This document shows positions 2,733 to 31,426 of a DNA stretch of 34,061 nt, piece by piece; position 1 is the stretch's first letter; each line of letters opens with the position of its first letter. The stretch lies in contig JAPYUH010000005.1 of NCBI GenBank assembly GCA_029936195.1, forward strand, positions 15,821 through 49,881. Direction: 5' to 3'. The DNA is from Alphaproteobacteria bacterium. Lineage in GTDB: Bacteria; Pseudomonadota; Alphaproteobacteria; GCA-2731375. The notes below the pieces were generated by a model. The model was not told where the DNA came from. It ran no database searches and saw nothing but the letters and a program-made list of their open reading frames with translations. Made by a program: the position numbers and the translations under genes.

Positions 2733-3384
2733 CGCAACGGCTCATCTCATTCGGTCCTGGTGTTGGGCCGCGCTGGTTTTGATATTGGCGGCTTGTGCCG
2801 CGCAGGCGCCTTTCGAGGGCAGCACCTCGTCGGACGACAAGACGATATTTGTCACCTCCAACGGCTGGCATACGGGCGTTGTCATGGCGAAGTCGGATAT
2901 CCCGTTCGGCCTGTTGCCCGAAGCGGCCGACTTTGCCGAAGCCGCGTACTTTGAATTCGGCTGGGGCGATGCCGAATTTTACCCGGCCAGGGATGTGACC
3001 GTCACCATGACCATGGCCGCCGCCCTGGTGCCGACCCCGGCGGTGATGCACATGGCGGGCCTATGGACCAGACCGGCGCGATACTTTCCCAAGGCGGAAG
3101 TCATCCCCTTGATCATTTCCGCGAAGAATTTCGGCCGTCTGGCTGCATTCATTGACGGCAGTTTCAAGCGGCCCGGCGCCGGACGGGTCTCTCATTTCAC
3201 GCCGGGGTTATACGCCGCATCGGGATTCTATCCCGCCAAGGGCCGCTTCCATCTGCTCAACACCTGCAATACCTGGACGGCGCGGGCCCTTCGCGCGGCG
3301 GGTTTCAAAATTGATGCCCGGGGCACCACCCAGGCCGAGGCCTTGATGCAGCAGGTCCGTGGGTTATACAGAGGTGCCGGTTAA
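2719..3384 (+). CDS. DUF2459-family (TIGR02117-like) putative lipoprotein
   Basis: IFVTSNGWHTG, YFEFGWGD..FY and FHLLNTCNTWTA motifs; hydrophobic leader with LAAC lipobox. Start GTG 2719 or TTG 2725, overlapping the end of the selenoprotein gene. Confidence 0.75.
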   Translation: MDLSNATAHLIRSWCWAALVLILAACAAQAPFEGSTSSDDKTIFVTSNGWHTGVVMAKSDIPFGLLPEAADFAEAAYFEFGWGDAEFYPARDVTVTMTMAAALVPTPAVMHMAGLWTRPARYFPKAEVIPLIISAKNFGRLAAFIDGSFKRPGAGRVSHFTPGLYAASGFYPAKGRFHLLNTCNTWTARALRAAGFKIDARGTTQAEALMQQVRGLYRGAG

Positions 3385-5049
3385 AGATTGCGCGGCCCGT
3401 TCCCGCAGCTCCGCCTTGCGCACCTTGCCAGTGGAGGTCATGGGCAGTTCGGGCAGAAACAAAACATGCCGGGGGATCTTGAACGAGGCGATCCGGCCCC
3501 GGCAATAGTCCAGGATCGCATCCTCGTCAGGCGCCCGCCCCGCCTTCGCCACCACGAAGGCGACGGCCACTTCGGTCAATCGATCATCGGCATGGCCGAC
3601 CACCGCCACATCGGCCACGTCCTCGTGGCCCAGCAGATAGCCCTCTACTTCCATGGCATCCACATTCTCGCCGCCGATCTTCAGCATATCCTTGTAGCGG
3701 CCCAGAAAGCGGAGGAAGCCGTCGGCCCGCAAATAACCCATGTCGCCGCTATGAAACCAGCCGTCTTGGTCATAGGCGGCGGCCGTTTCTTCCGGTTTTT
3801 TGTAATAACCCAGCATCAGATTATAGGATTTGATGATGATTTCACCCGGCGTGCCCGTGGGCTGATCGTTGCCGGTTTCGGGGTCGATGACCCGGAAGTC
3901 AAAGCCGTCGCAGGGATGGCCGGAGGAATAGCAGATTTGTTCCCGGCTCGAATCCAGAAACGACAAACAGGCATTGCCGCCGATTTCGGTCATGCCATAG
4001 GCGGTGACGGGCCACATGGGCGCCAGCACATCGAGGGCCCTGCGCAGCACCGGCACCGCGCTGTTGGTGCCGCCACCGAATATGCCGGTGCGCAGGGATG
4101 ACAGGTCCCTGGCCCTGGCCTCCTGGGCATCGATCAGGCCCTTCACGTGGGTTTCGAAGCCGGACAACTGGGTCACGCCTTCCGCTTCGATGGCATCGAG
4201 ACAGGCTTCGGGATCAAACATTTCCACCAGGATCTGCCGGTTGCCCGTGGCCATGGACAGCATCGGCCCATCCAGATAGCCGAAAATATGGAACAGGGGC
4301 AGATAGTTGAACATCACATCCCGCTCCGTCGTGCCCAGAACCTTTACCCGGTCGATCTGATTGCGCAAAAAGCCATGGCTGCGCACGACCCCCTTGGGAA
4401 AGCCCGTGGTGCCGGAGGTGTACATGATGAACGCCGGATCATCGCGCCGGACTGCCGCCGCCCGCCGGGCCAGCTCCCCATTCAGCGCATCATCGTCGTT
4501 GCCCGCGATCCCGGCCCAATGATGGGTGCCGAAGGGCGCCGCCGCCGCAGCTTCCGTGGTTTTGATAATGATCCGTCGCAGATATGGAAATTGTTCGGAA
4601 TTGATCGTGCCATTTTCAGACCGTTCCTCGTCCCCCACCATCTCTCGGGTCATTTGCCAATAGTCGATGGGGCCGGAGGTGTCATGGGTGATCAGAGTGC
4701 TGCAATCCGCCTGGCCCAGAACATAGGCCGCATCCGCCGTGCGAAAACGGGTGTTTATGGACACCATGACGGCGCCCACCCTGGCGATGGCAAAAATCAG
4801 GTGGATCCATTCGGGGCAATTGTTCAGCCATACCGCGACCCGGTCGCCCGTGCCGACCCCGGCGGCAATCAGCCCGCGCGCCACCTGATCGGAGCGGGTG
4901 GCAATATCGGTGAAACTCTGCCTCTCGTCGCGAAAGGCCAACGCCTCCCGACCGCCCCAGCGGTCCGCCGCAAGCCCCGGCAGATCGGCCAGGGTGGTGG
5001 TGTCATTCCACGGCGTTGGATTAGGCGACGGGTTTGGCGCCGGGTTCAC
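3364..5049 (-). CDS. AMP-binding protein / acyl-CoA synthetase (ANL superfamily)
   Basis: YTSGTTGFPKG, AYGMTE, GWFHSGDMG, GRYKDMLKIGGEN, TSTGKVRK. The GTG start overlaps the upstream amidohydrolase stop (GTGA). Confidence 0.92.
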   Translation of the reverse strand: MNPAPNPSPNPTPWNDTTTLADLPGLAADRWGGREALAFRDERQSFTDIATRSDQVARGLIAAGVGTGDRVAVWLNNCPEWIHLIFAIARVGAVMVSINTRFRTADAAYVLGQADCSTLITHDTSGPIDYWQMTREMVGDEERSENGTINSEQFPYLRRIIIKTTEAAAAAPFGTHHWAGIAGNDDDALNGELARRAAAVRRDDPAFIMYTSGTTGFPKGVVRSHGFLRNQIDRVKVLGTTERDVMFNYLPLFHIFGYLDGPMLSMATGNRQILVEMFDPEACLDAIEAEGVTQLSGFETHVKGLIDAQEARARDLSSLRTGIFGGGTNSAVPVLRRALDVLAPMWPVTAYGMTEIGGNACLSFLDSSREQICYSSGHPCDGFDFRVIDPETGNDQPTGTPGEIIIKSYNLMLGYYKKPEETAAAYDQDGWFHSGDMGYLRADGFLRFLGRYKDMLKIGGENVDAMEVEGYLLGHEDVADVAVVGHADDRLTEVAVAFVVAKAGRAPDEDAILDYCRGRIASFKIPRHVLFLPELPMTSTGKVRKAELRERAAQSLTGTSV

Positions 5050-6731: not shown

Positions 6732-7961
6732 ATGAACGAGATAAGCGGCGGCGCGGGCTGTCTGCAGGGCGTGCGTATTCTGGATCTGACCCAGTTCGAG
6801 GCGGGCCCGTCGTGTACCGAGGCCTTGGCCTGGCTGGGGGCGGAAGTCGTGAAGGTGGAAAACCCCAGGGGCGGCGACCCCGGGCGCGGATCCTTCGCCG
6901 AGCCACCCGGCAAGGATTCCTGGTATTTTCTTTTGTTCAATGCCTCGAAAAAGTCCATCACGGTAAACTTAAAAGACCCGGCGGGGGTCGCCTTGGTCAA
7001 GGATCTCGCCCGCAAGGCGGACGTGATGGTGGAGAACTTCGCCCCCGGCGCCATTGAACGCCTCGGCCTGGGCCATGACGTGATGCGGGAGGTCAACCCC
7101 GCCTTGATCTACGCCCAGGTCAAGGGCTTTGGCGAAGGCAGCCCGTTCGAAAACAACCTGGCCTTTGACATGATCGCCCAGGCCTGCGGCGGCATCATGT
7201 CCATCACCGGCGAGCCGGATCAGCCGCCGGTGAAGCCGGGCACCACCTTGGGCGATACGGGCACGGGCATGCTGCTGGCCATTTCCATCCTGGGCGCGCT
7301 GTATAGGCGCAAGGACAGTGGCAAGGGGGAGCGCCTGCAACTGGCCATGCAGGATGCCATGTTGCATTACATCCGGGTCGCCTTCGCCTCCCAGGCCGCG
7401 TTCAACAAGCCGGCGCCGCGGGCGGGCGCGAAATTAATATCGGGGGCCAATCCACCCTGCGGCATTTTTCCCTGCAAGCCGGGCGGCCCCAACGACTATG
7501 TCTATATCTACACCTCGCGGGCCAATCCCCTGCACTGGCAGCGGTTGCTGGAATTGATCGGCCGGGAGGATCTGATTGGAGATCCCAACTATGCCACCGG
7601 CGCCATCCGCGCCGAGCGGGAGGACGAGATCGACGAAATGGTCAGTCAGTGGACCCGCCAGCATGACAAGCACGAGGCCATGCGTCTGGTCGGCGCGGCC
7701 GGTATTCCCGCCGGCGCGGTGCTGGATACGGACGAGTTGCAAAACGATCCGGACTTTGAACGCCGGGGCATCATGCAGACTATGACCCACCCCACCAACG
7801 GTGATTTCAAGATACCCGCCTGGCCCGTGCGACACGACGGCGCCCCGCCCCCCATCGCGCCCGCTCCCCTGCTGGGCGAGCATGCCGACGACGTGCTGGG
7901 CCGTTGGCTGGACATGGATAGCGCGGCGGTCGGAAAACTGCGCGACGACGGGGTGATTTAG
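6732..7961 (+). CDS. Class III CoA-transferase (CaiB/BaiF, formyl-CoA transferase-like)
   Basis: LQGVRILDLTQFEAGP, LGAEVVKVE, ADVMVENFAPG, catalytic Asp context LGDTGTG, APLLGEH. Confidence 0.92.
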   Translation: MNEISGGAGCLQGVRILDLTQFEAGPSCTEALAWLGAEVVKVENPRGGDPGRGSFAEPPGKDSWYFLLFNASKKSITVNLKDPAGVALVKDLARKADVMVENFAPGAIERLGLGHDVMREVNPALIYAQVKGFGEGSPFENNLAFDMIAQACGGIMSITGEPDQPPVKPGTTLGDTGTGMLLAISILGALYRRKDSGKGERLQLAMQDAMLHYIRVAFASQAAFNKPAPRAGAKLISGANPPCGIFPCKPGGPNDYVYIYTSRANPLHWQRLLELIGREDLIGDPNYATGAIRAEREDEIDEMVSQWTRQHDKHEAMRLVGAAGIPAGAVLDTDELQNDPDFERRGIMQTMTHPTNGDFKIPAWPVRHDGAPPPIAPAPLLGEHADDVLGRWLDMDSAAVGKLRDDGVI

Positions 7962-9067
7962 CTGTCGAGGCACCAATCCAATATGGGCCGGTTTTCGTCG
8001 CTGGGATAGGTGTGTGAGAGGTCTTCAACCTCGCGATAATGCAGCCTTGCCCCGGCGGCGGCAAGGGCCTGTTGGGCATCGCGGGCGATTTGGACGGGGA
8101 ACATCCAATCCAGGGCGCCGTGGGTGACATAGACGGGCAGATCCTTGATCCTCCCCGGGTCCATCATTTCCAGCAACAGGGGATGGAAGGAGGCGGAAAT
8201 AGGCGCCAGATGCGTGAAGGGGGACCCTTCGCCCAGGCCCGAGACATAGGTGAAGGTGCCGCCGTCGCTCATACCGGTCAGCAAAATATGGTCCGGGTCA
8301 ATGTTCCATTGCTCTTGGGCGAAGCGCACCAGCCCGGCCAGATTGGCGCTGTCGGCTTCCGGTTCCATCAACGACCAAGTACCCTCCCGCGAGGTCGGCG
8401 TGATCAGAATGGCGCCCCGGCCGCGGGCCTCGCGCAGCCAGGTCCACAGGAAATCCCGGCCATGGCCGCTGCCCCCATGCAGCCCCATGATCAAGGGATA
8501 GGCCACGCCGGGGTCATAATATTCCGGCACATACATGGAAAAGCCGCCCCGGTCCGGCTTGTCATTATTGGCATGCATGATGCCCACATTGTCCCGGCCG
8601 CTGTCCGCATTGGCCAGTTTCGAAACCAGCGCCTCGTCCGCCCGCCCGGCATCATCAAGAAAAAAGCGATTGATGGGCGGCAGCATCCTGGCCGCCGGGT
8701 ACAGGGCAGCCATGGCCTTGGCGTTCTGGCGAATGCCGCGATAAGCCTGGGAGGTGCCATCGGGCGCTTGCGCTGCCTCCCGCAGTCCATCGAAACCAAG
8801 GCAGACGGCCTCGGCCGCGGCCACCATCTGATCGGCGAAGGGTGCCAGTTTCGCCGGCCAGTCCAGGGCACGGAAGGGTTCCAGACCCTGGCGCAGCGGT
8901 TCATCGACGCCCGCCACGCTGGCCACGAGCTCTGCCAAATGCGGCGGATGCAGGCGCCGCGCTATATAGCCAAGGGCCTCCATGCCATTCAACAACGGCC
9001 CCAGCAAATCGGTAATGGCGTTGATCAGGGCCTCATTACTGGCGGCGGCTTTCGATTCATCGGTCAT
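7958..9067 (-). CDS. Alpha/beta-hydrolase (phospholipase/carboxylesterase family) with long N-terminal extension
   Basis: LHGGSG, nucleophile GMSDGG, HGALD and LSHTYP (Ser-Asp-His triad). ATG 9067 (MTDESK). Confidence 0.82.
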   Translation of the reverse strand: MTDESKAAASNEALINAITDLLGPLLNGMEALGYIARRLHPPHLAELVASVAGVDEPLRQGLEPFRALDWPAKLAPFADQMVAAAEAVCLGFDGLREAAQAPDGTSQAYRGIRQNAKAMAALYPAARMLPPINRFFLDDAGRADEALVSKLANADSGRDNVGIMHANNDKPDRGGFSMYVPEYYDPGVAYPLIMGLHGGSGHGRDFLWTWLREARGRGAILITPTSREGTWSLMEPEADSANLAGLVRFAQEQWNIDPDHILLTGMSDGGTFTYVSGLGEGSPFTHLAPISASFHPLLLEMMDPGRIKDLPVYVTHGALDWMFPVQIARDAQQALAAAGARLHYREVEDLSHTYPSDENRPILDWCLDS

Positions 9068-9169
9068 GGCAACTCTATTCAGCAAGTCATTTTACCCACC
9101 ATATCACCTTGACCAAACACTCTCACTGGCCAAAATTGATCCATAAACCAAAACGGGAGGAATCGAGAC

Positions 9170-10192
9170 ATGGCGGTACAATCAACAAACCACGAATGGC
9201 TGGCACGGGGCGAGGAAGAAACCCTGGAGCCGGACCTGGCCATCTGCGATCCGCACCATCATCTGTGGGAGTTCAACCACACCCGGGTAGCGCACCGTTA
9301 TCTGCTGGATGAAATTCTGGTGGATATGAATTGCGGCCACAACGTGGTCTCCACCGTGTATATCGAATGCGGCGCCATGATCGATGTGAACGACCCGTCC
9401 CCCATGCGCATGGTCAACGAAACCAAATTCGTCAACGGCGTCGCCGCCATGAGCGCCTCGGGCCTGTACGGCGATGTCCAGATCGCCGCCGGCATCGTCG
9501 GGCATGCGGATTTGTGCCTGGGCGATGATGTGGGGACGGTGTTGGAGGCCCACGTGGCGGCCGGGGGCGGACGGTTTCGCGGTATCCGACATTCCTGCAC
9601 CTGGGATGCGGCGCCCGATGTGCCCAATGCCCGTTGCGCCCCGGTTCGCCACCTTTATCAACAGGACAACTTCCGCCAGGGCTTCGCCCATCTGGCGCGC
9701 CACGATATGAGCTTTGAGGGCTGGTGCTATCACACCCAAATCAGTGAATTGAAGGAACTGGCCCAGGCCTTTCCCGACACCACCATCATTCTGGATCATT
9801 TCGGCGGCCCCCTTGGCATCGGACCCTATAAAGGCAAGCTGGAGGAGAATTTCACCCAATGGCGGGCCGACATAACGGCACTGGCCAAATGCCAGAACGT
9901 GGTCGCCAAACTGGGCGGCATCAACATGGAATTGAACGGCTTCGGCTGGCATGAAATGGATCGACCGCCCAGCTCGGAAGAATTGATGCAGGCAACCCGG
10001 CCCTATTATGAACACACCATCGAACAGTTCGGGGCGGACCGGTGCATGTTCGAATCCAATTTTCCCGTCGACATGTGCACCTGCAGCTACAATGTGCTGT
10101 GGAACAGTTTCAAGCGTCTGACGGCGGATTATTCGGCCGATGAAAAGGCCAAGCTGCATCACGATACGGCGACCCAGATCTATCGTCTTTGA
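9170..10192 (+). CDS. Amidohydrolase family protein (L-fuconolactonase / lactonase-like)
   Basis: DPHHHLW, FRGIRH, ILDHFGGP, KLGG, CMFESNFPVD. GGGAGG RBS. Confidence 0.88.
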   Translation: MAVQSTNHEWLARGEEETLEPDLAICDPHHHLWEFNHTRVAHRYLLDEILVDMNCGHNVVSTVYIECGAMIDVNDPSPMRMVNETKFVNGVAAMSASGLYGDVQIAAGIVGHADLCLGDDVGTVLEAHVAAGGGRFRGIRHSCTWDAAPDVPNARCAPVRHLYQQDNFRQGFAHLARHDMSFEGWCYHTQISELKELAQAFPDTTIILDHFGGPLGIGPYKGKLEENFTQWRADITALAKCQNVVAKLGGINMELNGFGWHEMDRPPSSEELMQATRPYYEHTIEQFGADRCMFESNFPVDMCTCSYNVLWNSFKRLTADYSADEKAKLHHDTATQIYRL

Positions 10193-10962
10193 TGGGGTTT
10201 GACCCGGCCGGCCTGCTGCCGGGCGATTTGGCGCCCTGGCTGGCCTTGGTACTATTGGGGCTTAGCGCGGTGACCTCGTTCATCTCGGCTGCCTTCGGCC
10301 TGGGTGGCGGCATGGTGTTGTTGGCGGTGATGGCCACCATTCTGCCGGCCACCGCGTTGGTGCCCGTGCATGGCGTGGTGCAGATCGGCTCCAACATCTC
10401 GCGGGCGGCGGTCATGGTGCGGCATATCCAACTGCCGGTGCTGCTGCCCCTGACCCTGGGCAGCCTGGCCGGCGCGGTGATCGGCGGGCTGATCGCCGTG
10501 CGCTTGCCGGACTGGTTGTTGTTTCTGGCGGTAGGTTCCTTCGTTCTATGGTCGGCGTGGAGCAAGGGTTCAATTCTCCTGGGCCGGGCCACCCTTGTGC
10601 TGGGTGGTGCCATCTCGGGTTTTTTGACCATGTTCATCGGCGGCACGGGGCCGTTCGTGGCGGCAGTAATCAAGACCCTGAAGCTGGACCGCATGAAAAC
10701 CGTCGGCACCCAGGCCGGCTGCATGGTTTTTCAACATGGCATGAAGATCGCCGTGTTCGGCGTCCTCGGCTTTGACTACCTGCCCTATCTGCCCTTGATC
10801 GCCGGCATGATCGCCACTGGTGTCCTGGGCACGCTGATCGGCAGCAAGGTCCTGCACGGCATGGGCGACAGCCGTTTTCGTATTATTCTGACCGGCCTGC
10901 TGACCATTCTGGGACTGCGCCTCTTGTGGCAGTCGGGATCAATCGTTCTGGGGGGCGGTTGA
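10192..10962 (+). CDS. Sulfite exporter TauE/SafE family membrane protein
   Basis: FISAAFGLGGG, VPVHGVVQIGSN, GFLTMFIGGTGP; multiple hydrophobic segments. TGATG overlap with the upstream gene. Confidence 0.85.
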   Translation: MGFDPAGLLPGDLAPWLALVLLGLSAVTSFISAAFGLGGGMVLLAVMATILPATALVPVHGVVQIGSNISRAAVMVRHIQLPVLLPLTLGSLAGAVIGGLIAVRLPDWLLFLAVGSFVLWSAWSKGSILLGRATLVLGGAISGFLTMFIGGTGPFVAAVIKTLKLDRMKTVGTQAGCMVFQHGMKIAVFGVLGFDYLPYLPLIAGMIATGVLGTLIGSKVLHGMGDSRFRIILTGLLTILGLRLLWQSGSIVLGGG

Positions 10963-11013
10963 TCGCGGCGCGATTGACGCTCAGAATAGAAAAAGTATGG
11001 AGGGAGACAGGTC

Positions 11014-11883
11014 ATGAAATTCGGGCTGCGTTATTGCAATACGGGCCGCTATATCGATCCGGCCAAGGCGGTGGAATTGGTGCAGGCGGGCGAGGATGCC
11101 GGGTTCGAGTCCGCCTGGACGGTGGAGCATACCGTGGTGCCGGAAGGCTACCAATCCGCCTATCCCTATTCCGATGACGGCAAGATGGCCGGCGGCCACG
11201 ACGACGTGCCCCTGCCCGACCCCCTGATCTGGATGGCCTACGTGGCGGCGGCGACCAACCAGATCAAATTGGCCACGGGCATCCTGATCCTGCCCCAGCA
11301 TAATCCCGTCATCACCGCCAAGCAGATCGCGACTTTGGATTTTATGTCGGCTGGGCGGGTACTGTTGGGCATCGGTGTCGGCTGGATGCGGGAAGAATTC
11401 GAGGCCCTGGGCGCCCCGTTCGATGACCGCGGCGCGCGCACGGATGACTATGTGGCGGCCATGCGGTCCCTGTGGAGCCAGGAGAAGGCCACCCATCAAG
11501 GCGAATACGCCAGCTTCGAAAACGTCTATTGCCGGCCGCAACCCGTCAATGGTTCGGTCCCCATCATCGTTGGCGGCCATTCCCGGCCAGCGGCGCGGCG
11601 GGCGGGACGTCTGGGCAATGGCTATTTTCCAGCCCGGGGCGCCCCCGCCGACCTGATCGCCCTGGCGCGGAAAACGGCCCAGGAACATGGCCGCGACCCC
11701 GCCGCGATCGAGATCACCACGTCGCTGCCCGACGACATGGACGAAATTCCAGCCCTGGCCGCCGCCGGCGTCAGTCGCATTCTGGTGCCGGTCACGCCCA
11801 TGGCTGGCTTGGCAACGCGAATTTCCAATCCCGACGACGTCAAGAACTGGCGCGACATCATCGACAAATACGCCGAGGTTTAG
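11014..11883 (+). CDS. LLM-class (luciferase-like) oxidoreductase, TIGR03619/Rv2161c-like group usually annotated F420-dependent
   Basis: GFESAWTVEHTVVP, PDPLIWMAYVAA, LATGILILPQHNP, GIGVGWMREEF, PIIVGG. GGAGG RBS. Confidence 0.88.
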   Translation: MKFGLRYCNTGRYIDPAKAVELVQAGEDAGFESAWTVEHTVVPEGYQSAYPYSDDGKMAGGHDDVPLPDPLIWMAYVAAATNQIKLATGILILPQHNPVITAKQIATLDFMSAGRVLLGIGVGWMREEFEALGAPFDDRGARTDDYVAAMRSLWSQEKATHQGEYASFENVYCRPQPVNGSVPIIVGGHSRPAARRAGRLGNGYFPARGAPADLIALARKTAQEHGRDPAAIEITTSLPDDMDEIPALAAAGVSRILVPVTPMAGLATRISNPDDVKNWRDIIDKYAEV

Positions 11884-13259
11884 ATGTTGGGATGGCCAAT
11901 GCCGTCCGTGGATCGTTCGTAGGCATGGGCAATATCGAGCATCCTGGCCTCGTCGAAAGGTTGCGCGACGATCTGCAAACCCATGGGCAGGCCGTTCGCG
12001 GCCAGACCGCAAGGCACGGAAATTGCCGGCCAGCCCAAGGCGTTGAAGGGCAAGGTGTTGCGGGCCCTCATCCGCACCAGGCCGGGGTCGTCTTCAGTTA
12101 TCGGACAGGCGGCCAGGGCGGTGGTGGGCAGTACAAGGGCATCAAAACCCTGGAAAGCCGCCATGATGCCGCGTTTCAATTGCCGGCGCAGTTGCTGGGC
12201 CTGAACATATTCGACGGCGTTATGGCTGCGGCCCGACTCTATGACCCGCCGCAGGGTGGGGCCGAAATCATCCGGCCGTGCCTCAAAACGGCGGTGATGA
12301 TAGGCGGCCGCCTCCACCCCGATCATCAGATTGGTGCAATAGCTTAATGTTTTCAGATCGGGCAGCTTGATTTCTTCAATCACGGCGCCTTGGTCCCCCA
12401 GCACCGCGATCGCCCGTTCCGCGGCGGCGGCCCATTCGGGATCGCAGCCGGTGAAAAAATCAACACGGGGAATGGCGAGGCGGACGCCGTTTATTGGGCC
12501 GGCCGGCGCGGCAAAATCCGGTAGCGGGACATCCGCGCTATGGGGATCATCGGGGTCGTGACCCGAAATAGCCCCCAAGACCATGGCCGCGTCCCCCACG
12601 CTGCGCGTCATGGGACCCAGATGGTCCATGCTGTTGGACAACACCATGGCGCCTTGTTTGGAAACCCGGCCAAACGTGGGCTTTAGGCCGACAATGCCGC
12701 ACAGGGCCGCGGGCTGGCGGATCGACATGGCGGTGTCGCTGCCAATGGCGGCGAAGGCCAGACCGGCGGCCACCGCCGCCGCCGAACCGCCCGACGAGCC
12801 GCCGGTGATGTAATCCCGGTTCCAGGGATTGCCGGGTCCACCGAAAGCCGAGGATTGCGAGGACGAATCCGCCGCGCCCTCGGACAGATTGGTCTTACCG
12901 AGCAGCACCGCGCCGGCATCCGCCAGTTTGGCCACCACCATGGCATCAAAATCCGGGATGTCATCGGCATAGGCGCGCGAGGCAAAGGTAGTGCGGATGC
13001 CCTTGGTGGCCAACAGGTCCTTCACCGCCACGGGAATACCGTGCAAGGGCCCCCGGTCATGGCCCGCCGATAGCTCACGCTGGGCCGTTTCCGCTTGGGC
13101 CAGGGCCAGCTCGCCGGTCACGGTGATGAAGCTGTTGAGTTCGCTATCCAGGCTATCAATCCGCGAAAGCATGGCCTGGGTCAGCTCAACAACACCTATG
13201 TCGCCCTGGCGCAACAGGACACCGGCTTCTTCGATTGACAGCCAATGGTGATCCCGCAT
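11880..13259 (-). CDS. Amidase-signature family enzyme (GatA-like fold)
   Basis: GPLHGIPVAVKD, GKTN, GGSSGGS, GSDTAMSIRQPA, GLKPTFGRVS, GLPMGLQ. Confidence 0.9.
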   Translation of the reverse strand: MRDHHWLSIEEAGVLLRQGDIGVVELTQAMLSRIDSLDSELNSFITVTGELALAQAETAQRELSAGHDRGPLHGIPVAVKDLLATKGIRTTFASRAYADDIPDFDAMVVAKLADAGAVLLGKTNLSEGAADSSSQSSAFGGPGNPWNRDYITGGSSGGSAAAVAAGLAFAAIGSDTAMSIRQPAALCGIVGLKPTFGRVSKQGAMVLSNSMDHLGPMTRSVGDAAMVLGAISGHDPDDPHSADVPLPDFAAPAGPINGVRLAIPRVDFFTGCDPEWAAAAERAIAVLGDQGAVIEEIKLPDLKTLSYCTNLMIGVEAAAYHHRRFEARPDDFGPTLRRVIESGRSHNAVEYVQAQQLRRQLKRGIMAAFQGFDALVLPTTALAACPITEDDPGLVRMRARNTLPFNALGWPAISVPCGLAANGLPMGLQIVAQPFDEARMLDIAHAYERSTDGIGHPNI

Positions 13260-14140
13260 CAGGGGCGGCGGGCCTGGACGAAATGCAAACTGCTCGGCAC
13301 CCGCGCTTCGTCCGTGCCGTCGTAGTAGACCGACAGCCGGCTCTCTATCTCGGCGCCGATTGCCGCCAGGGTTTCCGGCGACGGATCATGGTTCGCGATG
13401 ATCCTGGAGGCCGGGCCGATGTTCAAGGCGTAGTCGGCTGCCTCTATAAGATCGGAAATGGGCGTTAGATCAACGGTCTCGGACAAGACCGAAATATCCC
13501 GGAAGCCAGCGCCCGTCAAAATTTCGGTCACATAATCAGTATCGGCAAAGGCCAATGGCCCCGGTGCCCGTGGCGGCGCGGCTTCCGGCGCACCGAGGAA
13601 CTTGATCGCGGCGTCCCGTGGAATGAAAAACCAGGGGTTCTCGGCCATTGGCGCCCAACAGACGAAACACAACCGGCCGCCCGGACGCAAGGCCGTCAGA
13701 AGGTTGGCAAACGCCGCTGTCGGATCCTCGAAAAACATTACGCCGAACCTTGATAACAACAGATCGTGGCGCCCGGCGGCAAATTGGTGACTTTGCGCAT
13801 CAGCGATCTCGAACATCAATTCGGCCGTCCCCGCGTGCTGTTTCGCCCGGCTGCGGGCCAGATCAAGCATGGCATGGGAAAGATCGATGCCCAGGACGCC
13901 ACCTTCCGGGCCGACAGCATCGGCGGCGGCCAGCACGGTGGCGCCGGTGCCGCAACCGATGTCGAGGACCCGTTCGCCGGCCTTGATAGCGGCGTGTTCA
14001 AACAAACGCCGCCCGGGCCCGCTCAACAAATGGTCCATTATGGCCTGATTTTGGGTCCAGGCGTCGCCCGCCTTGGCGTTCCAATATTCGGACTGTGCGC
14101 TGTTCGCCACGGCTTTTGGTGTCTCTGTCATTGTATTCAA
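13259..14140 (-). CDS. Class I SAM-dependent methyltransferase
   Basis: VLDIGCGTG, GIDLS..ML, ADAQ, SRFGVMFF.DP, LRPGGRL. TTG 14140 overlaps the upstream stop; ATG 14131 is an alternative start. Confidence 0.9.
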   Translation of the reverse strand: MNTMTETPKAVANSAQSEYWNAKAGDAWTQNQAIMDHLLSGPGRRLFEHAAIKAGERVLDIGCGTGATVLAAADAVGPEGGVLGIDLSHAMLDLARSRAKQHAGTAELMFEIADAQSHQFAAGRHDLLLSRFGVMFFEDPTAAFANLLTALRPGGRLCFVCWAPMAENPWFFIPRDAAIKFLGAPEAAPPRAPGPLAFADTDYVTEILTGAGFRDISVLSETVDLTPISDLIEAADYALNIGPASRIIANHDPSPETLAAIGAEIESRLSVYYDGTDEARVPSSLHFVQARRP

Positions 14141-14877
14141 TCACTCCATCCGCCGCTGAGGGAAAAAAACTGACCGGTCTGGAACCGGTTTTCGCCGTCC
14201 AACAAGGAGGCGGCGAAATGGGCAACTTCGTCGGGCCGGCCTAAACGATGCATGGGGGTTCGTTTCTCAACCCGGCTGCGAACCTCCGGATCGTCGGCGC
14301 CGTTGGCCTTGATGAAACCCGGATAATCCAGAAAGTTGGTGCCCAGGGCATTGATGCAAACCCCCTTGTCCGCGACATCCAGGGCGGCTGCCTTGACCAT
14401 CATATTAGCCCCCGCCCGCGTCGCCGAGTATAATGCCGAGGCCGGCACGGGACGGCGACCGGTGGCCGAGGTGACAATGACGATCTGTCCAGCGCCATTG
14501 GGCACCATGACCGCCAACAGCGCCTGCAGGGCATGAAACACCGCCTCCTGATTGGCCCCCTGCAGGGTCTGTAATTGTTCCAGCGTGGCTTCGGTGAAAC
14601 GGCCGCCGATGATCACGCCCGTGCGCACGCAGGCGGCGTCCAACCGGCCAAAACGTTCCAGCCCCACCGCGATCAGGCGGGCAATGGCGCTGCCGTCGAC
14701 GAGATCCCGGCAACCCTGGACCGCCACCACATCGGCGCCCAGTGCCTCCACCTCCCCTACCAGGCCCGGCAGGGGATCGCCCAGGATCAGGTCATGGTCG
14801 CGGGCAGCCAGTTTGCGGGCCAGATCGGGGCCCAGATGAAGATTGCAATCGGTGATCAGCGCAACGCGTCGGGTCAT
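14137..14877 (-). CDS. Halohydrin dehalogenase-like SDR-fold enzyme (G-type-like)
   Basis: No TGxxxGxG motif; instead T9-x4-H14-x-G16. Triad S137-x12-Y150-x3-R154. Segments GTNFLDYPGF and NRFQTGQFF resemble HheG as I recall its sequence. Confidence 0.8.
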   Translation of the reverse strand: MTRRVALITDCNLHLGPDLARKLAARDHDLILGDPLPGLVGEVEALGADVVAVQGCRDLVDGSAIARLIAVGLERFGRLDAACVRTGVIIGGRFTEATLEQLQTLQGANQEAVFHALQALLAVMVPNGAGQIVIVTSATGRRPVPASALYSATRAGANMMVKAAALDVADKGVCINALGTNFLDYPGFIKANGADDPEVRSRVEKRTPMHRLGRPDEVAHFAASLLDGENRFQTGQFFSLSGGWSD

Positions 14878-14940
14878 GACGGTGTCTTTCTGCCTGCATG
14901 AGGTGACAAGCATAGACTATTTTGCGAAGACGATGTTCCC

Positions 14941-14977
14941 AAGGAAAAGGGGCACACCGGCAACGCCGGCGCACCCC
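14941..14977 (-). terminator. Rho-independent terminator of the TRAP operon
   Basis: Minus-strand RNA GGGGUGCGCCGG-CGUUG-CCGGUGUGCCCC-UUUUCCUU: 12-bp stem with G-U pairs and a U tract, ~20 nt after the dctM stop. Confidence 0.7.
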
Positions 14978-14998
14978 TGTTTCGAAATGGCTACGGGT

Positions 14999-16345
14999 TT
15001 ACGACCTCAGCAACAAGGTCGGCAGCCAGAGACTGATTTCCGGGAAGGCGATAAGCAACGCCAGGGTCACGATATCCATCGCCAGGAACCACATGATGCC
15101 CTTGAAGATGGTCTCCAGCGGGACGGCATCGCCCACCACGCCTTTCAGAATATAGACGTTCAGACCAACGGGCGGGGTAATCAGCCCGATCTCCAGGAAC
15201 TTGACCATGATGACGCCGAACCAGACCAGGTCATAGCCCAGGTCCTGGATCACCGGCGTGACCACGGGAAGGGTTAGCAGCATCATGCCCAAGGGGTCCA
15301 TGAAGGTGCCCAGCACAATGTAGATGACGGATAGGGAGACCAGGATCATCACCGGCGGGACATCCAGATGGCCAGCCCAGACGGTCAACTCGGCCGCAAC
15401 GCCGGTCAGGGCGATGAAGCCGACAAAAATCTTCGCGCCCAGAACCAGGGCAAAGATATTGGCCGACTGGCGGGCAGTTTCGACCAGGGCATCCTTGGCC
15501 GAATCCTTGTTCAGACGCTTGGCCAGAAAGCCCAGGATCCAGGCGCCCGCGGCACCGGCGGCGGCCGCCTCCGTCGGGGTGACGATACCAGAATAAATGC
15601 CGCCCATGACGATGGTGAACAAGGCCAGGATGGACCAGGTGCCCTTCAGGGAGGTGATCTTCTCGGTCCAGTTGGAGGGCTCGCCGCGAGGGGCAAATTC
15701 TGGATTGGCCCGGGCCCGGACCCAAACCATGGCCATGTAGATTGCGGCGGACAGAATGCCCGGGATCAGGCCGGCCATCAAAAGCTGGCCAACGGATTCT
15801 TCCGTGAAGATGCCGTACAGGATCATCAGGATCGATGGCGGGATCAGCGACCCCAGGGTGCCGGAGGCGGCGACGACGCCGGTTGCCAGGCCGGGATCGT
15901 ATTTATGCCGCAGCATTTCGGGCACGGCCAATTTGCCCATGGCCGCGGCCGTCGCCAGGGAGGAGCCGCTGACGGCGGCGAACATGGCACAACCCAGGAC
16001 CGAGGCCAGGGCCAAACCGCCATGCAGTTTCGACATCCAGACCCGCGCGGTGTCATAAATATCCCGGGTGAAGCCGGCGTGGAATGCCACATAACCCATC
16101 AACAAAAACAGCGGCACCGCCACAATGGGGAAAGAGGCGATAAAGGAGAACGGTTCCAGCGCCGCATAGGCGAAGGCCGCCTCGAAACCGCGGTCAAAGT
16201 CAAATTGTTCGCCTTCGGGCCAGCCGACCGCGAAGATCAAGCCGACGAAGCCGACGATGGCCATGCCAAAGGCGATGGGCACCCGCAGGGACACGAGAAA
16301 CAGCATCGCGCCCAGGCCGAGCATACCTAGTAAAAAAGGATCCAT
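14999..16345 (-). CDS. dctM: TRAP transporter large permease
   Basis: AVPLFLLMG, FAAVSGSSLATAA, SGTLGSLIPPS, GGIYSGIVTPTEA, EIGLITPPVGLN. Confidence 0.93.
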   Translation of the reverse strand: MDPFLLGMLGLGAMLFLVSLRVPIAFGMAIVGFVGLIFAVGWPEGEQFDFDRGFEAAFAYAALEPFSFIASFPIVAVPLFLLMGYVAFHAGFTRDIYDTARVWMSKLHGGLALASVLGCAMFAAVSGSSLATAAAMGKLAVPEMLRHKYDPGLATGVVAASGTLGSLIPPSILMILYGIFTEESVGQLLMAGLIPGILSAAIYMAMVWVRARANPEFAPRGEPSNWTEKITSLKGTWSILALFTIVMGGIYSGIVTPTEAAAAGAAGAWILGFLAKRLNKDSAKDALVETARQSANIFALVLGAKIFVGFIALTGVAAELTVWAGHLDVPPVMILVSLSVIYIVLGTFMDPLGMMLLTLPVVTPVIQDLGYDLVWFGVIMVKFLEIGLITPPVGLNVYILKGVVGDAVPLETIFKGIMWFLAMDIVTLALLIAFPEISLWLPTLLLRS

Positions 16346-16360
16346 TACGTATCAAAACTC

Positions 16361-16891
16361 TCAAAGTTCGGCGTCAAGGATGCGGTCTTCTTCCGACCGT
16401 GTCGCTGTCGCCGTGTCATTAACAATGCCGTGGATCGATTGGATAAGATCCACCAGCAAACGTACCGCGAAGAGTGCCACGCCGAAGAACACGGCAAATT
16501 TGGCCGGCCATTCGACCAGTTCCAAGGGCCCTTCCACGTAGGCTTGGATTTCGTAGGATTCATAAAAATCCGTGAACACGGCCCAGCCGACAATGGTAAA
16601 GGCAATCAAACCGACAAATACGCCAAATGTCTCCAAAATCACTTTCTTCCGGTTCGGCATCCATTCCGTAAAAATCGTGACGAAGACATGCTCCCGCGAG
16701 GCCTGAACCGAACTCAATGGCAAAAATACGACGAACACCATCAGAAATTCGGAAAACACCAAGTCGTCGGGTATGGGTGCGGCAAACAAATATCGCCCCA
16801 AAACAGAGAAGCAGACCAACAAGGTCATTGTGACCAAGGCCGTTACAGAAATAACGACTGTTATGCGATCTATCGTATTTAATATTTTCAC
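16361..16891 (-). CDS. dctQ: TRAP transporter small permease
   Basis: Four hydrophobic segments, VLGRYLF, EHVFVTIF; lies between dctP and dctM. Confidence 0.88.
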   Translation of the reverse strand: MKILNTIDRITVVISVTALVTMTLLVCFSVLGRYLFAAPIPDDLVFSEFLMVFVVFLPLSSVQASREHVFVTIFTEWMPNRKKVILETFGVFVGLIAFTIVGWAVFTDFYESYEIQAYVEGPLELVEWPAKFAVFFGVALFAVRLLVDLIQSIHGIVNDTATATRSEEDRILDAEL

Positions 16892-16900
16892 AACAAGATT

Positions 16901-16935
16901 GTGGGGTTCCGTCCAAGACTTGGCCGGAACCCCAC
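16901..16935 (-). promoter_or_regulatory. Intercistronic stem-loop between dctP and dctQ
   Basis: Perfect 11-bp inverted repeat GTGGGGTTCCG (16901-16911) / CGGAACCCCAC (16925-16935) with inner CCAA/TTGG pairing. Confidence 0.65.
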
Positions 16936-16971
16936 CCTTTTACAGATTGTGCGTGAACTTAGTTCGCAATC

Positions 16972-18054
16972 CTAGTTCTTAGGCGCCCAAGGATAGCCGT
17001 CGTCCTTGAGTTTCTTGGTCCATTTGGCGTGGACCGCCTTGAACTTGGCGATGAATGCATCCGCATCCATGCCCTTTTTGGTGACCTTGGCCTTCCAATC
17101 AGAGGTGAAAGAGGCCGCGGCCGCGACGAACTTGGCATGTTCTTCCTTGCTCAAGGTATAGATGTTGACCTTTTTGCCATCGATGCCTTTTTGCAGAGAT
17201 TCCCGAGCCTCTTCGGTTGCTTCGATGGATTTTCTTGCGTAAACATCCATGTATTCATCGGAGGTCTTCACCAACACGTCCCGGATATCGTCCGGCATAC
17301 TTTTGAGCAGCTTTGTATTGATGCCGCCGCCATAGCCGAGAACCTGGCCCATGGCCGCTTCCGTCAAATGCGAGGCAACTTCATAATGTTTGTAGGATTT
17401 GACGAACGGCGTGTAGTTGATGGTGCCGTCGATGGTGCCGCGGTCCAGGGCCGCATAAAGCTCGCCAAAGCCGATCTTCACCGGCACCGCGCCCAGCGCC
17501 TTGAACAGATGGGTCCAACCGCCCGATGTGCGGATCTTCAGGCCCTTGAGCCCGGCGGCGGTTACCACCTTCTTTTTGGCCATCAGCAATTGTACCGGGC
17601 CGGTGGTGTTATTGAAAAGAATGGTGACCTTATGCTTGTCGGTCTCCGCCTTGATTTCCGGTACGGTCTGGCGCAGTTCGAACCAAGTGCGCATGCCAAC
17701 CCAGGCATCTGAATGCAGGAACGGCGTATTGGCATAATTCCAGACCGGGAATTCGGCCGGGTGATAGATGCCGATGATGGTGCCCATGTCCGACAGCCCC
17801 GAACCGACCGCCTTCATGGTCGCCTTGCCTTTCACCAATGACTGGCTCCAGAACCACTTGATCTTGATATTGCCCTTGGAACGGGTCTCAAGTGCCTCGG
17901 CCCACCAGAACAACGCATTGGCGCGCGGGCCGCGGGGCGGTCCGATATCCGCATAACGAAGAGTGTAAACCTTGGCTTCCGCCGATGAATAGCCGACTGG
18001 CGCGGCTAGCAGAGCGGTCGCCGCAATGGCGCCGCAAAGAGCAAGTTTGAACAT
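16972..18054 (-). CDS. dctP: TRAP transporter substrate-binding protein
   Basis: Signal peptide MFKLALCGAIAATALLAAP, GLKIRTSGG (conserved Arg), LGAVPV, ELYAALDRGTIDG. GGGGGA RBS before ATG 18054. Confidence 0.92.
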   Translation of the reverse strand: MFKLALCGAIAATALLAAPVGYSSAEAKVYTLRYADIGPPRGPRANALFWWAEALETRSKGNIKIKWFWSQSLVKGKATMKAVGSGLSDMGTIIGIYHPAEFPVWNYANTPFLHSDAWVGMRTWFELRQTVPEIKAETDKHKVTILFNNTTGPVQLLMAKKKVVTAAGLKGLKIRTSGGWTHLFKALGAVPVKIGFGELYAALDRGTIDGTINYTPFVKSYKHYEVASHLTEAAMGQVLGYGGGINTKLLKSMPDDIRDVLVKTSDEYMDVYARKSIEATEEARESLQKGIDGKKVNIYTLSKEEHAKFVAAAASFTSDWKAKVTKKGMDADAFIAKFKAVHAKWTKKLKDDGYPWAPKN

Positions 18055-18449
18055 GTGTAATCCCCCGATTAGGACAAAATTTCTATTAATTGTTACCTGA
18101 ATTTTCCCAGACAACCTCCAAAGAGGCTCCAACAATAACTATGTTTAATGAAAAATGAAACAGTTTAGCGCCCGCCGCCGGTTACCGTCGGTCAAGCAGG
18201 CAGGCGGGACAGGCCCCAATTCAGGGATTTGAAGCCTGATAGGATAGAGAATTACAGTCGTGGAGACCTGTGCGGGACGCTCATGCCTTTTTTGATATTA
18301 GGCGGGCCATCCGCCGAATGGGTTTTATCAGAGGGATCGGGCGCGGACGGCAAGGCATCAATTTCGGTTATGCGGGCAACTCAATATTAACAACAGGCGC
18401 CGAAAATTTCCGCGCAGCGTGACCGAATTTGTCGTTCGATATCTTTAAG

Positions 18450-23456: not shown

Positions 23457-24886
23457 ATGGCTGATGCCGAGGTAACCCGGCGGTTGGCCGCCATACTTGC
23501 CGCCGACGTCGTCGGATATAGTAAGTTGATGGGGGCGGACGAGGCCGGCACCCTGGCCGCGTTGCGCGATATTTGGCAAGAGGAATTCGACCCTGCATAG
23601 CCCGGCACAACGGCCGCATCGCCAAGAAAATGGGCGATGGCGCCCTGGCGGAATTTGCCTCCGTGGTCGACGCGGTGTCCTGCGCCGTGGCTTTTCAAAG
23701 ACGCATGGCGGACCGGAACAGTACCCTGGGCGGTGCCCAAGACAATGATGGCCCGGCGCCCATGGAATTCCGAGTCGGCGTTAACCTGGGCGATATCTGG
23801 ATCGAGGACGGCGATATATTCGGCGACGGCGTCAACATCGCGGCCAGACTGGAAGGCCTGGCGCCCGCGGGCGGTGTTCTAATCTCGGATTCCGTTCATG
23901 GCCAGGTCGTGGGCAAGGTCGATGTTGAATTCTCTGATAGGGGCGAACGGCGGCTCAAGAATATCGATCGTCCGGTGCACTGCTGGCAATGGGATGGCAA
24001 GGTGGATCGTGCCGCCAACCCGGAAAAGACCATTGCGGATGCGTCCCTGGAACAAAAAATCCACTTCTGCACCTCGTCCGACGGCGCCGAAATCGCCTAC
24101 GCCACATCCGGCACCGGACCGCCCCTGGTTCGCGCCCCCCATTGGATGAGCCATCTTGAATTCGATTGGCAGTCGCCGATCTGGCGCCACGTATTGGCAT
24201 CATTGAGCCAGGAAAATACCCTGGTCCGGTTTGATCAACGGGCCAACGGTCTTTCGGATTGGGATGTGGAGGAGGTCTCCTTCGAAGCTTTTGTCAGTGA
24301 TTTGGAAGCCGTCGTCGATGCCGCGAATCTGGAACGCTTTCCCCTCTTCGGCATCTCCCAGGGTTGTGCCATATCCATTGCCTATGCGGTGCGGCACCCG
24401 CATCGGGTCAGCCGCCTCGTTCTGTACGGCGGGTTTGCCCGGGGCAACGAACAAAGGGGCTCGGCCGCCGCCGACCAGGCCGTCGCCATGCGTACGTTGA
24501 TCAAAACCGGATGGGGCCGCGACAACCCGGCCTTTCGCCAAATGTTTACCTCCAGTTTCCTGCCTGGCGGCACGACGGAACAATGGGACTGGTTCAACGA
24601 ATTGCAAAGGGTCAGCGTGTCGCCGGAAAACGCCGTGCGCCTCCGTACCGCCAACGACAATGTGGATATCACCGACCTGCTGCAACAAGTGACGGTGCCG
24701 ACACTGGTCATGCATTGCAAGGGCGACGGCATTGTCCCGTTCAGCGAAGGCCGCCGCATGGCCGCCATGATACCCGGCGCCCGGTTCGTGCCCTTGGAAG
24801 GCGAAAATCATCTGATCTTGGAAGACGAGCCCGCCTGGCCGATATTTCTGGCGGAGCTGCGCAGTTTTCTGGCGGCGCCGGATTAA
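23457..24886 (+). pseudogene. Class III adenylate/guanylate cyclase fused to an alpha/beta-hydrolase, split by a 1-nt frameshift near 23591-23597
   Basis: AAAGGA RBS and ATG 23457 give RRLAAILAADVVGYSKLM...EEFDPA then TAG 23598. The -1 frame continues IARHNGRIAKKMGDG, RVGVNLGD, GDGVNIAARLE, then the hydrolase (GISQG, ENH). Real lesion or sequencing error cannot be distinguished from this sequence. Confidence 0.8.
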
Positions 24887-26960: not shown

Positions 26961-26975
26961 CTCTCGACCGTCACA

Positions 26976-28841: not shown

Positions 28842-28848
28842 TGCCGCC

Positions 28849-29361
28849 TCAGGCGGGCCGGGTCAGGGGTTGCAGGCGGGCCAGGAATATCGCCACCAGG
28901 GGATAGGCGGCGGTGCCGATGGCGTGAGACACCAACAAGGGAACGGATTCTATGACCGTGACGTGGAAAACCGATGCCACGAACCAGTTCAGGATCGCCG
29001 CGCCGCCGGCAATCAGCAAATAACCCAGCCAGCCCACGGCAAAGGATTTACCGGCTAGGGCGCGGCGCTGGCCGGACGCGGCCCAATGCACCAGGATCAG
29101 CACCAGGGCGTTTAATCCCGGCGGCCCGCCGCTGAGGACATCAACCAACAGGCCCAGCAAGAAGGCGGCGCCCGCCGGCATCAGTTCGGGACGAAACAAG
29201 CTCCAGTAGTAAACCGATATCAGTGCCAGGACCGGCGCCGCCAAGGACGATTTCGGCAATCCATAGGGCAGAACGGCGGCCAGGATCAGCAGGACCGAAA
29301 CGGCGAATGGGATGCCCGAGCGGCAAAAATCAGCCACCTTGTTGGAAAGCCGGGCGTCCAT
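28849..29361 (-). CDS. mreD: Rod shape-determining protein MreD
   Basis: Hydrophobic 170 aa with YYWSLFRPE..P and GLLVDVLSG.P.G; lies between mreC and mrdA. Confidence 0.9.
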   Translation of the reverse strand: MDARLSNKVADFCRSGIPFAVSVLLILAAVLPYGLPKSSLAAPVLALISVYYWSLFRPELMPAGAAFLLGLLVDVLSGGPPGLNALVLILVHWAASGQRRALAGKSFAVGWLGYLLIAGGAAILNWFVASVFHVTVIESVPLLVSHAIGTAAYPLVAIFLARLQPLTRPA

Positions 29362-29363
29362 GG

Positions 29364-30281: not shown

Positions 30282-30304
30282 GTTTTGTCCCGCGTTTTGT
30301 CCCG
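30281..30304. repeat. Perfect 12-bp tandem duplication at the mreC translation start
   Basis: CGTTTTGTCCCG twice (30281-30292 and 30293-30304). Confidence 0.85.
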
Positions 30305-30379
30305 CTCGTTCTGCTCTCCGCCCTATCCAAACATGGTTCGGAAAGGTCTTTGCCTAGTCGCCTTGCCTAATAGTTTCGC

Positions 30380-31426
<1,047 letters not shown>

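Follow-up and report, generated by a model that had tools for sequence, protein, structure and literature searches.

A histidine-bearing relative of G-type halohydrin dehalogenases in an alphaproteobacterial genome

Introduction

G-type halohydrin dehalogenases (HHDHs) are prized for opening bulky and cyclic epoxides with many anions. To our knowledge, very few of them have been characterised: HheG, HheG2, HheG3 and two enzymes from Acidimicrobiia. Here we analyse a gene for a G-type-like homologue that lies in a 34,061-nucleotide stretch of an alphaproteobacterial genome (assembly GCA_029936195.1, contig JAPYUH010000005.1, positions 15,821 to 49,881; this whole stretch is hereafter called the window). 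A first-pass annotation, made from the sequence alone, had read the 246-residue product (P0001) as a G-type-like HHDH with a non-canonical His in motif 1 and had suggested that this residue would hide it from strict motif mining.

The mechanistic archetype of the HHDHs is HheC from Agrobacterium radiobacter AD1, in which a Ser-Tyr-Arg triad works next to a pocket lined by motif 1 (PMC11976700, PMC4989007; citations by PMC number refer to parts of each article), and this is the mechanism assumed for P0001. HheC belongs to a different subtype, and subtypes share less than 30% sequence identity (PMC4989007). The archetype of the G type is HheG from Ilumatobacter coccineus (PDB entries 5o30, 6i9u/v/w and 7qy3), which carries an insert of about 12 residues after strand β2 (flexible loop 39–47, PMC11536340). 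This insert has been called unique to G-type HHDHs (PMC10099379).

HHDHs have been mined by PHI-BLAST with two fingerprints, T-X4-F/Y-X-G (motif 1) and S-X12-Y-X3-R (motif 2) (PMC4989007, PMC11976700), and the 2022 search that yielded HheG3 again relied on "known sequence motifs" (PMC10099379). A 2025 paper from the Schallmey group describes the three motif-1 residues as highly conserved in natural HHDHs and mentions just two variants from nature, both of which concern the Thr (PMC11976700).

Results

Translation and alignment confirm the coordinates of the gene and the residues T9, H14, G16, S137, Y150 and R154 that the first-pass annotation had assigned (Table 1). A longer frame of the same gene in the list of open reading frames (ORFs) reaches an ATG at 14913; we place the start at the Met encoded at 14877 because the nearest homologues, 245–246 residues long, begin there. 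Motif 2 is present with exact spacing. Motif 1 keeps its Thr (T9) and Gly (G16) and has His14 at its centre in place of Phe or Tyr. The claimed loss of the NAD-binding TGxxxGxG motif is evident in an alignment with eight short-chain dehydrogenases/reductases (SDRs) of the Lys type: two of the three Gly residues are replaced, by Asp10 and by His14, which aligns to the second Gly, and only G16 is left. NNAG reads V-R-T-G, and the catalytic Lys of the eight SDR rows is Arg154. The protein accordingly shares with HHDHs the absence of a Gly-rich NAD(P) motif and has none of the marks of a classical NAD(P)-dependent SDR (TGxxxGxG, NNAG, Ser-Tyr-Lys).

The only Pfam families that match P0001 are adh_short_C2 (1.3e-29) and adh_short (3.5e-23), and no NCBIfam model reaches its cut-off (best 93.9 bits against a cut-off of 296). 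In a phmmer search against all PDB chains, the top eight distinct sequences are all G-type HHDHs (E values 2.5e-75 to 3.3e-62), namely 7wkq (2.5e-75), AbHheG (8h8y, 1e-70), its mutant 8hqp (2e-69) and the five HheG entries (8.7e-63 to 3.3e-62; 5o30 at 2.5e-62). Outside the HHDHs, the highest-ranking chain belongs to an ordinary SDR, 4yqz (3.6e-24). The HheA entries 1zmo and 4z9f give partial matches over residues 116–244 only (about 1e-19), and the 60 best PDB matches do not include HheC. An AlphaFold2 model based on a 40-sequence alignment (mean predicted local distance difference test score 95, predicted template-modelling score 0.92) was compared with known structures by Foldseek. It superimposes on AbHheG 8h8y with a template-modelling (TM) score of 0.97 and a root-mean-square deviation of 1.1 Å, and on HheG 5o30 with a TM score of 0.96. 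Pfam, model and Foldseek agree on the SDR fold of HHDHs, and the identity of 46–48% to the solved G-type enzymes, compared with less than 30% between subtypes, groups the protein with HheG, AbHheG and 7wkq. Classical NAD(P)-dependent SDRs such as FabG and glucose 1-dehydrogenase share the Rossmann-type fold and the two Pfam matches (TM 0.85–0.90), but at 23–31% identity and with the Gly-rich motif, NNAG and catalytic Lys that P0001 lacks.

For the phylogeny we used the quick tree of IQ-TREE on 139 rows, which comprised P0001–P0152 of 235–300 residues and ten more distant outgroup candidates; shorter and longer rows and P0142, which lacks its N-terminus, were left out. The distant rows and the outgroups were drawn from a representative library, whose listed matches have at most 54% identity to P0001. 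The tree splits 131 Ser-Tyr-Arg rows, with P0001 among them, from eight Lys-type SDR rows with a Shimodaira–Hasegawa-like approximate likelihood ratio test (SH-aLRT) support of 100. Clustering with NAD(P)-dependent SDRs, which the first-pass annotation had named as the outcome that would speak against it, is thus not seen. Two sequences intended as outgroups (P0170 and P0177) carry the Ser-Tyr-Arg triad with Phe at position 14 and fall within the HHDH side. Rows with Tyr at position 14 form an HheG-like group, anchored by P0125 (E about 1e-94 to 5o30 and 7qy3), and an AbHheG/7wkq-like group, anchored by P0111 and P0124; both lie beside P0001. The 103 rows with His are explained by one state change and form two blocks with good support, one of 97 rows (SH-aLRT 90) and one of six (99). 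The branch that unites them has a support of only 38; the tree agrees with one origin of the His type, which is weakly supported, and gives the exact sister relation of the His rows only tentatively. Sequence, tree and fold hence agree with the first-pass annotation that P0001 is a G-type-like HHDH homologue, and as far as homology and fold are concerned this assignment to the family is correct. Because one of the three motif-1 fingerprint positions fails, we file the protein as an HheG-like relative of the His type and not as a proven HHDH.

The closest solved relatives are AbHheG and 7wkq, both from an Acidimicrobiia bacterium. Like P0001 they are short (246–248 residues) and lack the HheG insert after β2. 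They share with it 47–48% identity, the Ser-Tyr-Arg triad, GP after motif 1, the GTNF..P.F loop and a C-terminal GGW (TM 0.85 to 7wkq chains A and D). They differ in having Tyr at the aromatic position of motif 1 (Y15 in AbHheG) instead of His14, and Phe, Met, Phe and Tyr where P0001 has Arg85, Leu183, Tyr185 and Leu240. Their motif-1 Thr position is Ser or Gly, whereas P0001 retains Thr. In the engineered 8hqp the same aromatic position is changed to Met, together with the Asn of GTNF. HheG itself, at 46% identity, has the same triad and pocket loop architecture, but Y18 in place of His14, Val at the position of Arg85, and Met and Phe in the loop instead of Leu183 and Tyr185. Since the solved AbHheG and 7wkq also lack the insert after β2, its absence from P0001 says little, and we do not regard it as a reliable defining feature of the G type. 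The segments that the first-pass annotation had matched to HheG are broadly seen in the alignments of 7wkq and AbHheG, and in the HheG sequence as aligned to P0125 rather than to P0001; one of these segments, GTNFLDYPGF, differs in the solved enzymes (gtnfmdfp.f, gtnymdfpgf), exactly at clade-specific positions.

To place His14 in context we drew on two samples, the best 120 of 716 protein relatives (E ≤ 1e-20), which with P0001 make 121 aligned rows, and the best 80 of 527 confirmed relatives on contigs from one genome per species. At position 14, 104 of the 121 rows have His, 15 have Tyr and two have a gap; Tyr is the residue of the most distant rows (51–58% identity). The His that the first-pass annotation had called non-canonical does occupy the aromatic position of motif 1, but it is a conserved state of a clade and no isolated quirk. 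S137, Y150 and R154 are each conserved in 120/121 rows, and Ser-Tyr-Arg is found in all 80 genome loci.

His14 does not vary alone. In a comparison of 103 His rows with 23 Tyr rows (the long-branch Tyr rows P0137, P0138 and P0151 were left out), six positions have a state that reaches 85% or more in the former and is rare in the latter: His against Tyr at 14, Arg against Phe, Val, Ile or Gly at 85, Ile against Val at 134, Leu against Met at 183, Tyr against Phe at 185, and Leu against Tyr or Phe at 240. Arg85 occurs in all 103 His rows, Leu183 in 100 and Tyr185 in 101. No Tyr row has Arg85, or 1/26 if the three long-branch rows are counted. Tyr/Phe-type enzymes at large have Phe, Val, Ile or Ala at this position. 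Among the 80 genome loci the combination H-R-L-Y at 14/85/183/185 is found in 21 and in none of the 59 Tyr/Phe-type loci (49 with Tyr and ten with Phe at position 14), all of which have Met183 and Phe185 and none Arg85. Arg85 alone is not diagnostic, because the distant Phe-type P0170 has Arg there too. The H14Y single mutant proposed for comparison in the first-pass annotation would be an unnatural one, because His comes together with Arg85, Leu183, Tyr185 and Leu240.

Two details of variation within the His type may be added. Within the genus, position 181 (codon 14335–14337) is Asn only in P0001 and a twin of 95% identity, and Ala in the other relatives (22/24 same-group loci); across the His type it is Asn in 73 and Ala in 24 of the 103 rows. 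P0122 and P0148, from the representative library, are a divergent His-type pair with H-M-M-P in place of H-L-G-P; they lack the motif-1 Gly, a residue described as nearly immutable in the mutagenesis of HheC and HheG (PMC11976700).

When motif 1 is written as a strict regular expression (T-x4-F/Y-x-G), it is matched by none of the 103 His-type sequences, which bears out the expectation that His evades strict motif mining. T-x4-H-x-G is matched by 83 of them and S-x12-Y-x3-R by 94; in P0021 and P0026, for instance, the spacer of motif 2 is one residue shorter. The motif-1 Thr is kept in only 8/26 Tyr-type proteins and 8/59 of the Tyr/Phe-type loci, so that strict motif mining would miss most of the Tyr-type group as well. 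In the Tyr/Phe-type loci L020–L080 the Thr is mostly replaced by Ala, Ser, Gly, Cys, Asn, Gln or Val, and ten of these loci have Phe as the aromatic residue. The named entries among the 120 listed homologues are called SDR family oxidoreductase, 3-oxoacyl-acyl carrier protein (ACP) reductase (FabG) or NAD(P)-dependent dehydrogenase, and none of these source names contains "dehalogenase". In open-access full text we found no paper on a natural His variant; subscription journals and supplements were outside the scope of this search.

The signature residues coincide with the former cofactor site. Arg85 aligns to the second Asn of NNAG and T180–Y185 to the PGxxxT stretch of NAD(P)-type SDRs. In the model, His14 lies in the loop after β1 (residues 4–8), Arg85 at the end of β4 (81–85), residues 180–185 in the loop after β6 (173–179) and S137 just past β5. 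These strands are neighbours in a Rossmann-type sheet, where their C-terminal ends meet at the cofactor cleft. Residue by residue, positions 180–185 would correspond to HheC 175–180. In HHDHs, the nucleophile pocket is formed by residues that map to the Gly-rich motif and by loops that provide backbone amides (PMC4989007); motif 1 lines this pocket, F12 of HheC contacts the halide, and the backbone of L178 binds azide (PMC11976700). From these papers and the alignment to the cofactor motifs we infer an anion site bordered by His14, Arg85 and Tyr185, whose side chains probably face the pocket.

By analogy with these enzymes, P0001 would be a cofactor-free SDR-fold enzyme of the HheG lineage that interconverts an epoxide plus an anionic nucleophile with the matching vicinal substituted alcohol. 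By homology, Ser137 and Tyr150 would bind the substrate oxygen and deprotonate or protonate it, Arg154 would tune the Tyr, and the anion would occupy the pocket found where SDRs have their NAD(P) site. In the His-type clade this pocket would contain His14 for the aromatic motif-1 residue, Arg85 for a hydrophobic residue at the end of β4, and Leu183 and Tyr185 for Met and Phe in the loop after β6. Such a pocket would be more cationic and richer in hydrogen-bond donors, which may alter the choice of bound anions; the altered nucleophile preference proposed in the first-pass annotation would be one form of this.

All 80 genome loci stem from metagenome-assembled genomes. Hosts of the His type are Alphaproteobacteria (many labelled Rhodospirillaceae), Burkholderiales, one Dehalococcoidia, one Thermoanaerobaculia and one Poriferisodalaceae; hosts of the Tyr/Phe type are mostly Acidimicrobiia and other Actinomycetota, with two Gammaproteobacteria. 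The proteobacterial context proposed in the first-pass annotation therefore holds, as the nearest loci are from metagenome-assembled genomes of Alphaproteobacteria/Rhodospirillaceae. The source assembly has one copy of the gene. At E ≤ 1e-40 the gene was detected in 15 of the 20 other genomes of the same genus, and not in 12 genomes of the family's other genera nor in 28 genomes of the class's other families. Two genus members (G002 and G009) carry two copies. The paralogue pairs L003/L009 and L006/L011 have about 78–81% identity to P0001; one copy is linked to a methyltransferase gene, and the second lies elsewhere, beside an amidase gene on the other strand or beside genes for glutathione S-transferase and ArsC.

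On the minus strand of the window, the HHDH-like gene is preceded by dctP, dctQ and dctM for a tripartite ATP-independent periplasmic (TRAP) transporter and followed by genes for a methyltransferase and an amidase (Table 1). The HHDH-like and methyltransferase genes are probably co-transcribed. For methyltransferase and amidase, NCBIfam and the PDB give generic matches only, all below family cut-offs; the amidase is GatA/AtzE-like. In the 12 closest genome loci (78–83% identity to P0001), the methyltransferase gene follows directly downstream in nine, and the amidase gene comes after it in six. The contig of L012 ends inside the methyltransferase gene, L003 and L005 continue with other genes, and L008, L009 and L011 are second-copy contexts that have no methyltransferase gene. 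We considered the TRAP transporter as an operon partner and rejected it: just one of the 12 loci (L002) has it upstream, and a hairpin lies in between. Because of this hairpin the TRAP genes probably form a unit separate from the HHDH-methyltransferase-amidase genes, and the rarity of the linkage fits. Among His-type loci at greater distance, the neighbouring genes are unrelated (MFS transporter, amidohydrolase, glutathione S-transferases, luciferase-like oxidoreductases, peroxiredoxin, cytochrome bd) in a rough survey that picked up some antisense or over-extended frames and, for L013, no Pfam matches. The gene context is conserved only in the genus-level group, and no pathway can be named from it.

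Table 1. Features of the HHDH-like gene and its neighbourhood in the window
Feature	Position	Strand	Evidence
HHDH-like gene P0001, 246 residues	14137..14877	minus	stop-free reverse-complement translation; TGA stop 14137–14139
Motif 1 region T9-D-C-N-L-H14-L-G16 (TDCNLHLG)	14830..14853	minus	H14 codon 14836–14838
Motif 2 S137-x12-Y150-x3-R154, putative catalytic Ser-Tyr-Arg by homology	14416..14469	minus	exact spacing
Arg85 codon, final residue of strand β4	14623..14625	minus	strand 81–85 in model
Loop G179-T-N-F-L183-D-Y185-P-G-F188 after β6	14314..14343	minus	clade-specific L183 14329–14331, Y185 14323–14325
Leu240 codon, clade-specific; Tyr/Phe in Tyr-type enzymes	14158..14160	minus	row comparison
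Class I S-adenosylmethionine-dependent methyltransferase	13259..14131	minus	Pfam Methyltransf_25/11; ATG 5 nt past HHDH-like stop, GGAG inside the end of the upstream gene
Amidase-signature amidase, abuts methyltransferase gene	11880..13259	minus	Pfam Amidase 1.2e-117
Terminator-like hairpin, 14 pairs, 10 of them G-C, then TTTTCCTT	14948..14978	minus	consensus scan only; in 121-nt gap between dctM and HHDH-like gene
TRAP genes dctP 16972–18135, dctQ 16361–16891, dctM 14999–16345	14999..18135	minus	Pfam DctP, DctQ, DctM

Four marine RNA-Seq runs from three studies contain contigs of 151–385 nt (depth 2–4, 95–100% alike) on parts of the three HHDH-methyltransferase-amidase genes, which is no proof of transcription. 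One of these contigs spans the HHDH/methyltransferase junction without a mismatch; contigs of this kind do not show transcription.

Further genes of the window were noted in passing. Three plus-strand genes at 9170–11883, for an Amidohydro_2 protein, a TauE/SafE-like permease and an F420-dependent luciferase-like monooxygenase (LLM) oxidoreductase of the TIGR03619 family (250 bits, which exceeds the cut-off), run convergently towards the amidase gene; in the genus, the three show synteny with the HHDH-methyltransferase-amidase genes. A thiamine pyrophosphate-dependent enzyme (342–2003, minus), an AMP-binding ligase (3364–5049, minus) and a formyl-CoA-transferase-like family III CoA transferase (6732–7961, plus; 374.8 bits, below the cut-off of 442) may together form a module of the oxalate/formyl-CoA type. 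The rod-shape cluster mreB-mreC-mreD-PBP2-rodA (25806–31426, minus) is intact and in its usual order. For a 357-residue ORF at 8039–9112 (plus), neither Pfam nor NCBIfam gives a match, also when thresholds are relaxed. An alpha/beta hydrolase at 23573–24886 was considered as an epoxide hydrolase and set aside, as it lacks the epoxide-hydrolase N-terminal domain.

Discussion

We consider it probable, with considerable room for doubt, that P0001 and its clade carry out HHDH chemistry on an epoxide/vicinal-substituted-alcohol pair, with the anion in a pocket remodelled by His14, Arg85, Leu183 and Tyr185. Both catalysis and a shift in the anions preferred are predicted here from family membership and from the residues that align to the pocket.

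Published mutagenesis bears on this proposal in both directions. The HheC variant F12H is active in dehalogenation and ring opening, with a melting temperature raised by 10.5 K (PMC11976700), so His at that position is compatible with catalysis. In HheG, active Y18 mutants in whole cells were reported by another group (PMC11976700). Several points count against HHDH activity of the clade. HheC F12H was used at 400 instead of 10 μg/mL and had lost its enantioselectivity with styrene oxide, and of 19 exchanges at Y18 of HheG only Y18F was significantly active as isolated protein (PMC11976700), so that a lone His is not obviously tolerated in the HheG scaffold. G-type HHDHs are described as nearly devoid of dehalogenase activity on beta-chloroalcohols (PMC10099379). 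No His-type member was found among the PDB chains searched by phmmer or in the open-access papers, and catalysis by such members is argued from homology. The orientation of H14, R85 and Y185 is taken from alignment and topology and not from measured distances. Finally, none of the scanned ORFs of the window was recognised as an epoxide hydrolase or as otherwise related to epoxides or halides. The HheG data argue that His alone would be a poor fit in that scaffold, which would suit a natural His type that needs accompanying substitutions; the same data equally leave room for an enzyme that is weakly active or shifted in function.

Such a shift in function is the strongest of the alternatives. 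The His/Arg/Tyr pocket may not serve a halide or pseudohalide at all: Ser-Tyr-Arg would act on a hydroxyl, an oxyanion (carboxylate, bicarbonate, nitrite, sulfate or phosphate ester) would be leaving group, nucleophile or handle, and the protein would be a functionally distinct, cofactor-free SDR-fold lyase rather than an HHDH. In favour of this proposal, four pocket-aligned positions switch jointly from hydrophobic or aromatic to cationic or hydrogen-bonding residues and are then fixed across several phyla, the gene is coupled within the genus to methyltransferase and amidase genes and not to epoxide or halide genes, and formate, nitrite and cyanate are among the anions that known G-type enzymes can use (PMC10099379). 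The idea is nevertheless a deduction from residue patterns throughout, the neighbours vary by lineage so that no pathway points to any one oxyanion, and Arg85 recurs in the Phe-type P0170. We regard such a lyase as rather unlikely, yet worth keeping in view. A related and similarly tentative proposal is that the clade might constitute a new HHDH subtype whose cationic His14/Arg85/Tyr185 pocket would select oxyanions (bicarbonate, carboxylates, nitrite, sulfate or phosphate groups) over halides; we think this unlikely as well. If it were true, a cofactor-free epoxide/oxyanion lyase chemistry would be widespread in marine and soil Proteobacteria and would so far have been invisible to motif-based HHDH mining.

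Alternatively, the clade could be catalytically weak or non-catalytic, with a binding or regulatory role and an HHDH activity crippled by His. The loss of soluble, active HheG protein upon exchanges of Y18 other than to Phe, and the weakness of HheC F12H, would agree with this view. Triad and pocket residues, however, hardly vary among sequences from several phyla with identities as low as about 45%, and most genomes of the genus retain the gene. This pattern fits selection on the active site and makes a crippled enzyme improbable in our judgement. That P0001 is an ordinary NAD(P)-dependent SDR, as the names of database entries and its exclusive Pfam matches to adh_short_C2 and adh_short would have it, is scarcely credible given the replaced Gly residues and catalytic Lys, the sub-threshold NCBIfam scores, and its place inside the Ser-Tyr-Arg family, apart from the Lys-type SDRs.

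HHDH chemistry with a remodelled anion pocket hence remains our preferred interpretation of the His type. What appears to be new here is the clade-wide state of His14 with Arg85, Leu183 and Tyr185; the system as such is of a known type. Uncultured marine Alphaproteobacteria commonly carry members of this clade, which has no link to halide or epoxide genes. It represents a sister group that is at least as sequence-rich (104/121 aligned rows and 21/80 best genome loci), that is excluded by the Phe/Tyr filter, and that bears no annotation other than SDR or FabG. Four or five fixed residues, an invariant Arg among them, set its pocket apart. For biocatalyst discovery these proteins would be useful as natural, co-adapted starting points for new nucleophile scope, in contrast to single mutants that fold poorly. 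Beyond such applications, the existence of this sister group bears on the question as to what G-type HHDHs do in nature.

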